DNA from: a virus | Lineage: Duplodnaviria > Heunggongvirae > Uroviricota > Caudoviricetes | Reading direction: 5' to 3' (one strand) | IMG/VR virus record: IMGVR_UViG_3300029305_002265 | Length of the DNA: 64,000 nucleotides | Shown: positions 1,737-5,464 of the stretch, one piece after another | How the letters are laid out: the number at the start of each line of letters is the position of its first letter | How positions within the stretch are numbered: the first letter of the stretch is position 1 | The notes under the pieces: generated by a model | What the model was told of the DNA's origin: nothing | Seen by the model: only the letters and a program-made list of their open reading frames with translations | Database searches by the model: none | Program-made: the position numbers and the translations under genes

Positions 1737-2360
1737 ATGGAAGAACTTGAAAATGTATTACTTTCAATCCCAACCTCAGTAGCAAACCTTCAGCTACCTG
1801 ATCCTAGTCTTAGAGATCATTATTTAGACGAGCAAGATAGGATTTACTGGCTAGACACACAGATTGACGACTCTACTCTTGAACTTGTGAAATATATTTT
1901 CAGATGTAACAAAGAAGATATGGGCAAACCTATTGCGGAGAGAAAGAGAATTTTAGTTATGATCGATAGTCCTGGTGGTTCCGTAGAGGTACTTGCCTCA
2001 CTTATTGGTGCTACTAAAAACAGTAAGACACCGATTTGGACTTGCTGCTACTGTACGGCTTATTCGGCTGCCGCAGACTATTTGGCTTGTGGACATAAAA
2101 GATTTGCATTTCCTATGACTAATATGATGTTCCATGCCGGTTCGGCTTGTTATCAGGGATCTCAGAATGACATTAATAGCGCCAAAAAGTTCTTTGATGG
2201 TATGAGTAAGAGAATCACGACAGAAGTGACTTCAAGAACAAAGTTTGATAACAAGTTCCTGAAAAAACTCAAAACAGATGATATTTATATGAATGAGGAA
2301 GAAGCGCTAAAGTATGGCGTAATCGATGAGATTGTGACCGACTTTGATGTTCTTTGTTGA
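1737..2360 (+). CDS. clpP: ClpP-like serine protease
   Basis: IDSPGGSV, AYSAAA (catalytic Ser), MFH (His) and DIYMNEEEALKYGVIDEI motifs; AAGGAG RBS. Confidence 0.9.
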   Translation: MEELENVLLSIPTSVANLQLPDPSLRDHYLDEQDRIYWLDTQIDDSTLELVKYIFRCNKEDMGKPIAERKRILVMIDSPGGSVEVLASLIGATKNSKTPIWTCCYCTAYSAAADYLACGHKRFAFPMTNMMFHAGSACYQGSQNDINSAKKFFDGMSKRITTEVTSRTKFDNKFLKKLKTDDIYMNEEEALKYGVIDEIVTDFDVLC

Positions 2361-2374
2361 TTGGAGAGAAAATA

Positions 2375-3802
2375 ATGGCAAAGTCCAAAAGCAAAATTCA
2401 GATTAACTTTATAGGAGAGGCAGCAGACGACGTAACTGGAAGTTGTATTCACATCCAGACTTCTAACAGACAAATTCTTTTGGAGTGTGGCTTATTTCAA
2501 TCGTGTGGCAGTACACTCGAAAATTACAAAATTAATAACAAGCACTTTGAATTTAAACCAAAAGAAATAGATTATGTGTTTGTGATGCATTGTCATGCCG
2601 ATCATCTTTGTTTATCTCCTAAACTATATGGGCAAGGTTGTCAGGCACAAATCATCGCTCCCAATGGAACAAAGCCTATTTCCGAAATATTATTAAAGGA
2701 TTCGGCGCGTATTATGGAAGCTGATGCTTTAGAATTATCAAGTAAGTTCAAAAGAGATTATGCTCCCATATATACAGAGAGTGAAGTTGGACAATGCTTA
2801 AAGCATTATACTGAATATCCAATTGGTGAGATAATTCAGTTGGATGAGTATATAAAATTTAGATTTATTCCTTCTGGGCACATACTAAATAGTGCCCAGT
2901 TGGAACTTTGGATTACTGAGGGCAATGTAACCAAGAAGATTGGTTACACAAGCGACCTTGGTAACATCCATATTAAGAAATATTATACTAATAAATTTGA
3001 ACCAATTACGAAGTGTGATGTATTGATTGGAGAAACGACATATGCTCGTGAGGAACGTATTGCCAATCAAAAAATGCGCAACAAGGATTTGGAAAAATTA
3101 GAGACTGTTATTAGACAGACTTGCATAGAAAATGACGCGAGAATATTGATTCCTGTATTTGCGAATGACAGATGTCAGAATATGTTGACATATATTTATG
3201 ACTTATTCCATAACGATGAGGACTTTGATATTCCTATTTTAATCGACTCGCCTATGGCCACTAGAGTATGCAATGCATATACCGAATTACTTGATGGCGA
3301 TGAAGCTAAAAAGTGGAAAGAAGTTTTAACGTGGAAGAATATTCACTTTGTTGAAAGTTCAATAGAAAGCCGAGAATGGCGAGATAGCAAACGACCCGTG
3401 GTTGTACTTGCTAGTAGCGGAATGATGGTTAGAGGCCGTAGTACGGGTTGGGCCCATAGCATGTTACCTCGAACGAATGACAGAATTGTATTCTGTGGTT
3501 TTACGGCAGATAATTCATTGGCATCCATTATTAAAGAGGGCAAGCAGAAAACTATTACTATTTCTGGGCATAGGGTAAAAAACAAATGTCAGGTAACAGA
3601 TTTGCATAGCTTTTCGAGTCATATGCAGAGAGATAGTTTACTTAAAACATATGGGGCAACTGAGTGTGAAAAAATCGTGCTAGTGCATGGTGAAATGAAC
3701 GGCAAGATTGGGTTTGCAAAAGAACTGCAGGAAGAAATAAGTAAAAATAACAATACAAGCAAAGTGATAATTGCAAACAAGGGATATGTGTTGTCACTTT
3801 AA
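2375..3802 (+). CDS. Metallo-beta-lactamase fold, beta-CASP family nuclease
   Basis: HCHADH (HxHxDH), SGHIL, TSDLG, GETTY, FSSH and VHGE motifs. Start moved to ATG 2375 behind the GGAG RBS. Confidence 0.9.
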   Translation: MAKSKSKIQINFIGEAADDVTGSCIHIQTSNRQILLECGLFQSCGSTLENYKINNKHFEFKPKEIDYVFVMHCHADHLCLSPKLYGQGCQAQIIAPNGTKPISEILLKDSARIMEADALELSSKFKRDYAPIYTESEVGQCLKHYTEYPIGEIIQLDEYIKFRFIPSGHILNSAQLELWITEGNVTKKIGYTSDLGNIHIKKYYTNKFEPITKCDVLIGETTYAREERIANQKMRNKDLEKLETVIRQTCIENDARILIPVFANDRCQNMLTYIYDLFHNDEDFDIPILIDSPMATRVCNAYTELLDGDEAKKWKEVLTWKNIHFVESSIESREWRDSKRPVVVLASSGMMVRGRSTGWAHSMLPRTNDRIVFCGFTADNSLASIIKEGKQKTITISGHRVKNKCQVTDLHSFSSHMQRDSLLKTYGATECEKIVLVHGEMNGKIGFAKELQEEISKNNNTSKVIIANKGYVLSL

Positions 3803-4017: not shown

Positions 4018-4248
4018 ATGGCTGACATTAAGTATAATTACAAGTTGAACATCAAGGGTGTCCTTTCGGTTGAGGGAGACAGAATTATCGTTTCAGTCGA
4101 GGATGATGTAGATTATAATCTCGCCGCACTTTGCAGAGATTTTGATGGCAAACTTTGTAAGATTGGTGTTGCTTATGAAGAGGAATACAGTGCTTCTGAT
4201 GTTGATGATGAAATTGAAATCGACGAGGAAACTGGCGAAGTAATTTAA
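4018..4248 (+). CDS. YonK-like small acidic protein
   Basis: 76 aa with a KLNIKG...L...FDGK...I pattern recalling SPbeta YonK; syntenic position; good RBS. Confidence 0.6.
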   Translation: MADIKYNYKLNIKGVLSVEGDRIIVSVEDDVDYNLAALCRDFDGKLCKIGVAYEEEYSASDVDDEIEIDEETGEVI

Positions 4249-4319
4249 GATACACAGTTATGGCTATCTTGGCGGATAGTCGGTATATAAGGGTTGTGGG
4301 TTACCCTAAACCCACATTT

Positions 4320-4394
4320 GGGAGATTAGCCTAGTGGTTTAGGCAGCGGACTGTTAATCCGCCTAGAGATGTTCAATCCATCTATCTCCCGCCA
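4320..4394 (+). tRNA. tRNA-Asn(GTT)
   Basis: GGGAGAT/ATCTCCC acceptor, GCGGA-CT-GTT-AA-TCCGC anticodon arm, TTCAATC T-loop, encoded CCA. Confidence 0.93.
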
Positions 4395-4398
4395 TTAT

Positions 4399-4474
4399 GG
4401 GGTTATAATTCAATTGGGAGAGTGCTACCCTTGCAAGGTAGAAGTTATGGGTTCAAGTCCCATTAGCTCCACCA
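4399..4474 (+). tRNA. tRNA-Ala(TGC)
   Basis: GGGGTTA/TAGCTCC acceptor with G3:U70, CTACC-CT-TGC-AA-GGTAG anticodon arm, CCA. Confidence 0.95.
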
Positions 4475-4552
4475 GGTAGCCAGTGTGAATGCAGGATTGG
4501 CTCTGCAGTGCGGCAACGGGGAGAGGCGCACTTAAATATCCCCTTTCCACCA
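4475..4552 (+). ncRNA. Candidate tRNA-sized structured RNA (hairpin plus pseudoknot) ending in ACCA
   Basis: 78 nt between tRNA-Ala and tRNA-Asp. Stems: AGCCAGT/ATTGGCT, AGTGCG/CGCACT, GGAGAGG/CCTTTCC. Does not form a cloverleaf. Confidence 0.4.
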
Positions 4553-4555
4553 TAT

Positions 4556-4632
4556 GGCTCCGTAGCTCAGTTGGTTAGAGCGCTAGCCTGTCACGCTATA
4601 GGTCAGGGGTTCGAGTCCCCTCGGAGTCGCCA
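4556..4632 (+). tRNA. tRNA-Asp(GTC)
   Basis: GGCTCCG/CGGAGTC acceptor, TAGC-CT-GTC-AC-GCTA anticodon arm, GGTTCGAGTCC T-arm, CCA. Confidence 0.95.
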
Positions 4633-4637
4633 TTTAT

Positions 4638-4720
4638 CGGAGGGCGGCGAAGTCGGAGAGTCGCGGCGGACTGTAAATCCGTTCCCTCTGGGTGAGTGGG
4701 TTCGACTCCCACCCCTCCGA
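4638..4720 (+). tRNA. tRNA-Tyr(GTA), C1:G72, no encoded CCA
   Basis: CGGAGGG/CCCTCCG acceptor, A73, GCGGA-CT-GTA-AA-TCCGT anticodon arm, long variable arm; followed by CCG. Confidence 0.92.
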
Positions 4721-4728
4721 CCGAATAT

Positions 4729-4802
4729 GGGTTGCTAGGCTAATGGTAAACCGGCAGGTTGTGGCCCTGCTCTTTCGTGTTCGATTCACGGGCTTCCCTC
4801 CA
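4729..4802 (+). tRNA. tRNA-His(GTG), atypical
   Basis: GCAGG-TT-GTG-GC-CCTGC anticodon arm, TTCGATT T-loop, CCA. Acceptor GGGTTGC/GCTTCCC has two U:U mismatches; U73; no G-1. Confidence 0.8.
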
Positions 4803-4810
4803 ATTTATAT

Positions 4811-4886
4811 GCTGGTGTGGCGCAATTGGTAGCGCAGCAGCCTTGTAATCTGCAGGTTCTCGGTTCGAGTCCGAGCATCAGCTCCA
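4811..4886 (+). tRNA. tRNA-Thr(TGT)
   Basis: GCTGGTG/CATCAGC acceptor, CT-TGT-AA loop, GGTTCGAGTCC T-arm, CCA. Confidence 0.95.
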
Positions 4887-4889
4887 TAT

Positions 4890-4968
4890 CGCAGGATAGT
4901 GTAATTGGCAACACGCTAGGCTCATAACCTGGAATTTATCTGAGGTTCGAATCCTCCTCCTGCAACCA
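4890..4968 (+). tRNA. tRNA-Met(CAT), initiator type
   Basis: C1xA72 mismatch (CGCAGGA/TCCTGCA), CTAGG-CT-CAT-AA-CCTGG anticodon arm, CCA. Confidence 0.88.
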
Positions 4969-5037
4969 AGTGATCGCGTTATGGAAACTTGCGAAGCCCA
5001 TAACCATAGGAGGTTCTGCGGAGCCTCCTATTATTAT

Positions 5038-5113
5038 CTCTCATTAGCTCAACGGATAGAGCATCTGGCTTCGAACCAGAGGGTTGCGCGTTCGAATCGT
5101 GCATGTGAGACCA
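5038..5113 (+). tRNA. tRNA-Arg(TCG)
   Basis: CTCTCAT/ATGTGAG acceptor, TCTGG-CT-TCG-AA-CCAGA anticodon arm, CCA. Confidence 0.93.
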
Positions 5114-5143
5114 TATAAAATAATAAGAAAAGGAGAAAAGATT

Positions 5144-5464
5144 ATGACAATTACTAGAGAAGAAATGGTAAGAAAACTTTCAGCGAAAAGTGGATATAAC
5201 ATGAAGGACATACGTGAAGTGTTGCGCTGTATGGACGATGTTGTTTTCGAAGAACTTTGTGAAGTGGATGACGACAATGATGTGTCGATACAATTGGTGC
5301 AAGGGATTAAAGTAAAAGCGGCGGTTGTACCTGAAAGAGACAGAGTAGATCCCCGCACACAGCAACCAATAGTGGTAAAGGCTACCGTAAAACCTGCTTG
5401 TAAGTTTAGCCAGGATTATAGGATTAAACTTCAGGAAGCATATGACAATAACAAGAACGGCTAA
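5144..5464 (+). CDS. HU/IHF-like DNA-binding protein (YonN-like)
   Basis: MTITREEMVRKLSAKSG...RDRVDPRTQQPIVVKATVKPACKFS is HU-fold. True start is ATG 5144; the track start lies inside tRNA-Arg. Confidence 0.9.
   Translation: MTITREEMVRKLSAKSGYNMKDIREVLRCMDDVVFEELCEVDDDNDVSIQLVQGIKVKAAVVPERDRVDPRTQQPIVVKATVKPACKFSQDYRIKLQEAYDNNKNG

Follow-up and report, generated by a model that had tools for sequence, protein, structure and literature searches.

The window, a stretch of 64,000 nucleotides of viral DNA, is part of a large phage and encodes a prohead protease, a terminase and a portal protein. Its terminase shows only 25% identity to large Clostridioides phages, and no close cultured relative of the array region was found. 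Between 4320 and 5113 the + strand carries a tRNA array in the order Asn, Ala, a 78-nt gap, Asp, Tyr, His, Thr, Met, a 72-nt gap and Arg. Of the 8 tRNAs that ARAGORN predicts in the window, none falls at 4475–4552, the first of these gaps. A reading made from the sequence alone had placed here a tRNA-sized unit that does not fold as a cloverleaf, and indeed neither ARAGORN nor the Rfam tRNA model finds a tRNA at these positions. The placement was also correct: the gap starts after the CCA of tRNA-Ala (which ends at 4474), closes with ACCA, and is followed by TAT and by tRNA-Asp at 4556. However, homologues limit the conserved part of the proposed 78-nt unit to 46 nt, 4507–4552, which we refer to as the element. 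Its parts and neighbours are as follows.

4399–4474, + strand: tRNA-Ala(tgc), upstream neighbour of the element (ARAGORN, Rfam)
4475–4506, + strand: lineage-specific spacer with a small hairpin, outside the conserved element
4507–4512, + strand: S1 5' strand, AGUGCG, pairing with 4527–4532
4513–4519, + strand: loop 1, GCAACGG (family consensus GUAACGG), 96% mean pairwise identity over 24 variants
4520–4526, + strand: S2 5' strand, GGAGAGG, acceptor-like, invariant but for a single position, where 2 variants have C instead of A
4527–4532, + strand: S1 3' strand, CGCACU, covarying with 4507–4512
4533–4541, + strand: loop 3, UAAAUAUCC, A/U-rich, with a conserved AAUAUCC core (86% identity)
4542–4548, + strand: S2 3' strand, CCUUUCC, complementary to 4520–4526 with an invariant G.U pair; the junction base alone varies (C, A, U)
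4549–4552, + strand: single-stranded ACCA end, discriminator plus CCA
4553–4555, + strand: TAT spacer of 3 nt between the element and tRNA-Asp
4556–4632, + strand: tRNA-Asp(gtc), downstream neighbour of the element (ARAGORN, Rfam)

Several other features lie close by. A 482-aa metallo-beta-lactamase/beta-CASP/RMMBL protein, an RNA nuclease of the RNase J or CPSF73 type, is encoded 0.5 kb 5' of the array (2354–3802, + strand). We considered this gene as a partner of the element and rejected it, as five other element-bearing records contain no homologue or Beta-Casp domain and the gene is missing at the syntenic locus L043. The 76-aa neighbour protein, used as a query for related loci, matched only a near-identical contig. 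The tRNA-Tyr of the window (4638–4722) and those of L046, L048 and L012 combine a long variable arm of the bacterial type with C1-G72 as the first pair, which is the tyrosine identity pair of archaea and eukaryotes; the window copy ends in ACCG, so that its encoded CCA is incomplete. Tyr genes adjoin the element in several lineages, an association too weak to claim. The second non-tRNA spacer of the array (4966–5037) has a fold z of −3.6 and contains a 15-nt core, GAAACTTGCGAAGCC (4984–4998), that is found exactly in spacers of L030, L053, L063 and L038; a strong 11-bp hairpin at 5006–5031, followed by a U-rich run, lies immediately 5' of tRNA-Arg.

The boundaries of the element come from its homologues. 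An exact 33-mer search returned the near-identical contig and a distinct phage of 174.8 kb, L002, in which conservation is limited to the 3' 46 nt and the array opens with the element. Beyond the near-identical contig, positions 4475–4506 were seen in L020 only (90% over 29 nt), and these 5' 32 nt are missing from L043, the closest protein-level relative of the window. Other lineages have 0–55 nt of unrelated spacer 5' of the element, often with a different small hairpin. The hairpin proposed at 4478–4484/4496–4502 can therefore pair but does not belong to the element, since it falls within this lineage-restricted part.

We then scanned IMG/VR, metagenome contigs and 185,579 species genomes with degenerate patterns, the pattern for the species genomes requiring the conserved loops, half of S2 and CCACCA. 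Homologues in phage tRNA arrays, for which the sequence-only reading had proposed a search, were found: IMG/VR and metagenome contigs gave at least 45 occurrences in 28 distinct variants, on viral and metagenome contigs, each beside tRNA genes and on the tRNA strand. All 26 of the 26 metagenome matches were true members, even though the pattern left 3 bp of S2 free. The sole match among the 185,579 species genomes lies on a 39-kb contig with 19 tRNAs in a Bacteroidales MAG, and this contig is probably a phage. In 50,697 records of cultured phages, blastn of a 51-mer (E ≤ 10) did not find the element and returned two chance 18-mers, in Providencia phage PSTCR7. Covariance-model scores were bimodal, with members at 60–77 bits and everything else below 20 bits. 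Each of five whole viral records, including the complete 174.8-kb genome, holds exactly one copy, and there is one copy per array of 3–26 tRNAs, with varying neighbouring tRNA species. The 46-nt element is almost certainly a real conserved RNA gene of phages, and it represents a novel RNA family, present in many uncultured phages from gut or rumen.

Taken alone, the 78-mer has a fold no more stable than those of its shuffled versions (MFE −23.5 kcal/mol, z = 0.18). Covariation was assessed in an alignment of 24 distinct element sequences. Both sides of S1 have changed in five of its six pairs and 95% of its cells are paired, with variants that include GUGCG/CGCAC, UGUGCU/AGCACA, GACCU/AGGUC, AGAGCA/UGCUCU, GUUGCA/UGCAAC and GGCGCG/CGCGCU. 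None of 500 shuffles reached the observed S1 covariation score, and no slid register approached it. This comparative evidence indicates that the S1 hairpin forms.

The remainder of the element is under strong constraint. Over all variants, mean identity is 62% for S1 and 96% for both loop 1 and S2; loop 3 is longer by 2 nt in L012-type copies. The combination of a variable S1 with invariant loops and an invariant RCCA-proximal helix is the pattern expected if loops and helix are read sequence-specifically. Among the window, L020, L043 and L002 the element is 93–96% identical, compared with 67–87% for their tRNA-Ala and tRNA-Asn genes (except for the Asn genes of L020 and L002, at 96%) and 26–71% for the proteins they have in common; the terminases of the window and L020 are 38% identical. 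A whole-record comparison of three element-bearing lineages gave 7 protein clusters in common. These data bear on whether the locus might be a decayed tRNA pseudogene, as the sequence-only reading had allowed, or a site acting at the DNA level, such as a homing-endonuclease or integrase target. The array does hold homing endonuclease genes, and the acceptor-like strand is the same as in a tRNA-Ser, but the element is better conserved than the real tRNAs that adjoin it, it is invariably on the tRNA strand, and the compensatory changes in S1 reflect selection on RNA pairing rather than on a DNA word. We regard either explanation as very improbable.

S2 is a different case. The complementary segments of both helices lie where the sequence-only reading had put them, with zero bases between S2-5' and S1-3', and covariation, which it had asked of both, is present in S1 (five of six pairs) and absent from S2. 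S2 does not covary because both of its strands, including the G.U pair, are invariant. Its two variable positions are uncompensated: an A to C change opposite U in the L024 and L030 types, and a C to A change at the helix junction in L020, L030 and L042. Patterns that freed both strands of S2, or its middle 3 bp, returned GGAG[A/C]GG with [C/A/U]CUUUCC and nothing else. In 2–9% of shuffles the S1 loop and the tail are complementary over at least 7 bp. RNAalifold, which allows nested helices only, selects S2 and adds two G-C pairs using the CC of CCA; the last two G of loop 1 can pair with this CC and so lengthen S2.

Could S1 stand alone, as a hairpin with conserved single strands and no pseudoknot? 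The purine tract and the pyrimidine-RCCA tail would then bind a protein or RNA, or the whole would be a new ribozyme or aptamer. The uncompensated mismatches and lack of covariation in S2 agree with this possibility, as does a second S2 register (GGGGA/UCCCC, 5 bp) that fits the alignment equally well. Conservation extends to about 40 of the 46 positions, a level also seen with small ribozymes and aptamers, and in some loci a leader contains GUUAC, complementary to GUAAC of loop 1. On the other hand, S2 is the thermodynamically best consensus helix, it fits S1 geometrically with loops of 7 and 9 nt, and Rfam ribozyme and riboswitch models do not match at E ≤ 10; overall we think a structure lacking the pseudoknot quite unlikely. 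S1, which covaries, and S2, which is thermodynamically best, are compatible only together as an H-type pseudoknot, with a 6-bp S1, a 7-nt loop 1, a 7-bp S2, a 9-nt loop 3 and a 0-nt junction. Thus the H-type pseudoknot first proposed from the sequence has S1 secured by covariation, while S2 is complementary and favoured thermodynamically but does not covary; as modelled from the two helices together, we consider its formation probable.

The leader, GGRAAYRAGUUACCRUAGAAGACU, lies ~35 nt 5' of the element in L030, L053, L063, L056, L060 and L073–L076. Its GUUAC might pair with the loop-1 GUAAC, or the leader might be a promoter or processing signal.

We compared the element with known RNA families. 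Rfam 15, searched at gathering thresholds and, over 4200–5150, at E ≤ 10, gave no family at the element. The tRNA model RF00005 does not match it at E ≤ 10, and 46 nt is below cloverleaf size. RF00233, the tymovirus tRNA-like structure (TLS), gave one match at E ≤ 10, of 16 bits, inside tRNA-Tyr (4662–4723) and not at the element. The HDV families likewise do not match it at E ≤ 10, and there is no P3 hairpin of the HDV type, because the segment beside S1-3' pairs downstream. Models in Rfam 15 for the Pistol ribozyme, preQ1-I and other small pseudoknot riboswitches and ribozymes gave no match at E ≤ 10 in 4200–5150. These non-matches rule out the element as a member of the tymovirus TLS family or as a known ribozyme or riboswitch. 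Literature searches with strings of the element sequence returned unrelated primers only, and searches for tRNA-like pseudoknots of phage arrays found no description of the 46-nt element. Thus the earlier suggestion that this phage RNA is undescribed agrees with both Rfam 15 and the literature searched.

The likeness to tymovirus structures that had been noted holds for the probable H-type topology ahead of RCCA and does not extend to family membership, as RF00233 does not match and the conserved 46 nt contain no sequence for a T/D elbow or an anticodon-arm mimic. If S2 forms, the TYMV TLS shares with the element an H-type pseudoknot, an acceptor-like helix that lacks a 5' strand and a single-stranded ACCA, and its fold class is a substrate of RNase P (PMC12710915). 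It differs in being ~82 nt long, with the whole L-shape (T/D elbow and anticodon arm), in ending a plus-strand RNA genome and in being valylated, whereas the element has 46 nt, mimics neither elbow nor anticodon, and is a gene in the tRNA arrays of dsDNA phages.

The last four bases were left free in the pattern so that the 3' end could be judged. In 16 viral loci the element ends in ACCA (12 loci), GCCA (3 loci, L074–L076) or ACUA (L073), giving RCCA in 15 of 16. Retained without having been demanded, RCCA is part of the element; CCA is encoded by 69% of the tRNAs of these arrays. The next tRNA begins 1–5 nt past the element in 30 of 32 loci. One exception is L037, where a tRNA that ARAGORN missed and Rfam detects lies 1 nt away, and the other is L076, where a tRNA-like start follows. 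Ordinary tRNA–tRNA gaps in the same arrays have a median of 98 nt, and 29% are ≤10 nt. The upstream neighbour of the element lies 0 to 3,524 nt away, and the downstream tRNA species vary widely. With the next tRNA within 1–5 nt, the RNase P cut at its 5' end probably sets the 3' end of the element. Bacterial RNase P also cuts H-type pseudoknots with a 3' RCCA, in loop 1, in vitro, and it cuts the TYMV TLS in the same way; a G at −1, and a GG able to pair with CCA, disfavour such cleavage (PMC12710915). If S2 forms, the element has the shape of such a substrate (helices of 6 and 7 bp that abut directly, followed by RCCA) and may itself be cut by RNase P at 4519/4520, although the G at −1 argues against this.

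A tight link to the downstream tRNA could also serve the RNA that lies upstream. The element might act in cis as a 3'-end cap, in which the knot and CCA shield the upstream RNA (an mRNA, ROOL or the half of a permuted tRNA) from 3' exonucleases and RNase P makes the end, much as with the MALAT1 triple helix that lies 5' of mascRNA. The close coupling downstream and the variable partner upstream are consistent with this. The element comes straight after ROOL RNA in L059 (12 nt), L009 and L057, after a 76-aa ORF in L002 and L045, and, at loci of the L005 type, after the 5' half of a tRNA whose gene is permuted. However, a cap makes no sense 0–2 nt past the CCA of a complete tRNA, which is where the element sits in at least seven loci (L012, L013, L018, L043, L048, L054 and L064), and stability alone would not need ~96% conservation of loops and S2 across distant phages. 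We therefore judge a cap to be an unlikely explanation.

Alternatively, the element could be punctuation for processing, a surrogate tRNA that recruits RNase P or exonucleases for the maturation of its neighbours and is then released as a functionless fragment. Its position and spacing resemble those of a tRNA gene, RNase P cuts pseudoknot-RCCA substrates (PMC12710915), and the arrays contain other processing devices, such as the HDV-like ribozyme directly 3' of tRNA-Ala in L060 (PMC10879173). However, any tRNA would do this job, there is one copy per array of 3–26 tRNAs beside differing tRNA species, and the extreme sequence constraint argues for a sequence-specific partner, so that we give this explanation little weight.

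In the loci with ROOL RNA (RF03087), which belong to one lineage, this RNA occupies L059:1514–2088, L009:9666–10250 and L057:933–1287 and ends 12–80 nt 5' of the element, which may be the 3' end of the ROOL transcript in these phages. The permuted gene is a circularly permuted tRNA-like gene directly 5' of the element (L005:413–541; also L038, L049, L058 and L006; L037 and L047; and L050). It runs from a closing strand, UAGACC(U), through a linker, anticodon arm and T arm to the acceptor 3' strand (followed by ACCA in L005); next come an 11-nt loop, the acceptor 5' strand, the D arm, a linker and GGUCUA. The anticodon is GUA in L005 and L037 and GAA in L050, and when the halves were rejoined in silico ARAGORN called full-length tRNA-Tyr or tRNA-Phe. 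L005 and L038 differ by a compensatory acceptor change (GGGGCUG/CAGCCCC and GGGGCGG/CCGCCCC). No account of permuted tRNA genes from phages turned up in the literature searched.

We also looked for tRNAs that resemble the acceptor-like part of the element. Among 305 tRNAs of the member loci, only the tRNA-Ser(gct) genes of L012 and L054 start with GGAGAGG. The 3' strand of the L054 tRNA-Ser, CCUCUCC, differs from that of S2 at position 69 only (C for U), and that of L012 differs at 69 and 71. Bacterial tRNA-Ser conserves G1-C72 and G2-C71, and G73 is a moderate determinant (PMC9976931). S2 would give the element the tRNA-Ser acceptor pairs 1–3 (G1-C72, G2-C71 and A3-U70, the last of which is present in many tRNA-Ser). 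The element has no variable arm; its discriminator is A in most copies and G, as in tRNA-Ser, in 3. This resemblance supports a putative acceptor-stem mimic, possibly derived from tRNA-Ser, with charging being a separate matter.

Together, these observations suggest a model in which 4507–4552 would encode a ~46-nt phage-specific RNA and would function within the array in the manner of a tRNA gene. S1 would form a hairpin, and GGAGAGG, the 3' half of its loop, would most likely pair with CCUUUCC to give the H-type pseudoknot. Its two stacked helices would make a rod of ~13 bp ending in single-stranded RCCA, which would match the acceptor/T arm of a tRNA in size and terminus and would bear an acceptor sequence of the tRNA-Ser type. 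RNase P would generate the 3' end by cutting the tRNA 1–5 nt downstream, exonucleases would trim it to CCA, and the pseudoknot itself is possibly an RNase P substrate, cleaved in loop 1. The mature RNA could then act in trans as a mimic of the acceptor end, occupying a conserved factor that recognizes acceptor stems or CCA ends of tRNAs, which is the weakest step. Candidate targets would be a host defence toxin that modifies tRNA 3' ends, a synthetase, or a repair or processing enzyme.

Our confidence differs between the parts of this model. From what the sequences offer, we lean towards a pseudoknotted acceptor-arm mimic with a tRNA-like matured end. The full proposal, a tRNA-processed, pseudoknotted acceptor-arm mimic with RCCA that would act in trans, is the best reading overall, held at somewhat less than even confidence. 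That the RNA would be a trans-acting decoy or competitor is a tentative suggestion on which we would not rely, and it is more doubtful still that it would be a minimal acceptor-end decoy that absorbs or diverts a host enzyme attacking, tagging or sensing tRNA 3' ends, for example nucleotidyltransferase toxins of the DUF1814/MenT/AbiEii type or CCA-pyrophosphorylating toxSAS, or would itself be aminoacylated. The decoy or sensor roles put forward in the sequence-only reading are likewise tentative, and no partner was found. Against a mimic, S2 does not covary, a mimic of the T-loop or elbow, which many tRNA-binding enzymes need, is missing, and the discriminator is mostly A. No phage gene was found to co-occur specifically with the element, and neither a CCA-adding enzyme nor RtcB was found as a phage-encoded partner in 5 element-bearing records.

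A kinase-HD end-healing enzyme occurs together with an RlaP-like 3'-nucleotidyltransferase in four of five viral records that contain the element, and G001 also has a bona fide RlaP. This RNA end-repair set consists of a fusion of P-loop polynucleotide kinase and HD phosphohydrolase beside one or two RlaP-like Pol-beta nucleotidyltransferases (L085:8348–9226 and L085:9223–10062, both on the − strand; G001:167331–168266; homologues in G002, G003 and G005). The set is within the 7 protein clusters common to three otherwise unrelated element-bearing lineages, and its kinase-HD protein shows 65% identity between G001 and G003. No sequence relative of the 279-aa nucleotidyltransferase-like protein was found in the PDB. 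RlaP adds 1–2 nt to damaged RNA 3' ends (PMC12776372). The cassette fits phages that defend their tRNA pool, but it may merely travel with large tRNA arrays.

CCA-ended small RNAs of phage tRNA clusters and viral tRNA-like structures are both already known as kinds; what is new here is the family of the element, its fold and its tight link to the next tRNA. The species 1 and 2 RNAs of T4 (rnaC/rnaD) and the stable RNAs of T5 are non-tRNA products of phage tRNA clusters, ~100–140 nt long and partly cloverleaf-like. Like the element they are small, co-encoded and presumably co-processed with phage tRNAs, but they are longer, and no sequence relation was detected. MALAT1 and MEN-beta, with mascRNA/menRNA (RF01684), resemble the element in that RNase P cuts, as it probably does here, at a downstream tRNA or tRNA-like unit and a compact structure lies at the new end. 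These are eukaryotic lncRNAs in which a triple helix guards an A-rich tail, whereas the element has a genuine tRNA downstream and ends in RCCA. Acceptor-T-arm minihelices, such as minihelix-Ser and other SerRS substrates (PMC9976931), are rods of ~12–13 bp ending in NCCA, as the element would be; in contrast, the helix of the element would be built by a pseudoknot, without a T loop, with a G4.U69 wobble and mostly with A73 rather than G73. The theta ribozymes, minimal HDV-like ribozymes of gut phages with a nested double-pseudoknot HDV fold, lie 3' of mostly CCA-less tRNAs (PMC10879173). They are small pseudoknotted RNAs, as the element probably is, and like it are tightly joined to gut-phage tRNA genes, but the element lies 5' of its tRNA, ends in RCCA, lacks P3 and P4 and matches no HDV model. 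ROOL, GOLLD, drum and skipping-rope are orphan structured RNAs enriched in phage tRNA arrays (PMC5737381); they are unrelated to the element in sequence, size and fold, and ROOL, drum and skipping-rope are present in member loci.

The member loci contain a range of further elements. L060 has an HDV-like ribozyme of the F. prausnitzii type directly after tRNA-Ala (4793–4849) and a tmRNA gene (891–1267). A tRNA with a CUA anticodon, an amber suppressor that ARAGORN assigns to Pyl, lies at L062:1123–1198, and tRNAs with an 8-nt anticodon loop (tgaa) lie at L012:7764–7837 and L064:4975–5048. Drum RNA is found in L013, skipping-rope RNA in L046, cow-rumen-4 RNA in L073 and a group I intron in L020. 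In L050 an HNH-like endonuclease ORF (560–1330) sits between tRNA-Thr and the permuted tRNA-like gene, and GIY-YIG/NUMOD endonuclease genes are among the few proteins common to all lineages.

Phage tRNA arrays are now viewed as counter-defence toolkits, and their non-tRNA RNAs are almost all unexplained. The element is small and sharply bounded, it is more constrained than the tRNAs that adjoin it, and it shows a helix with RCCA, the most widely recognised RNA end. Should its role be limited to processing or capping, it would offer a small and portable means of setting RNA 3' ends. A mimic, by contrast, would carry the principle of viral tRNA-like structures over from plant RNA viruses to DNA phages and would hint at a factor, of host or phage, that reads the acceptor ends of tRNAs; if it proves to be a decoy or to be aminoacylated, DNA phages would have their first tRNA-like structure known to serve in this way.
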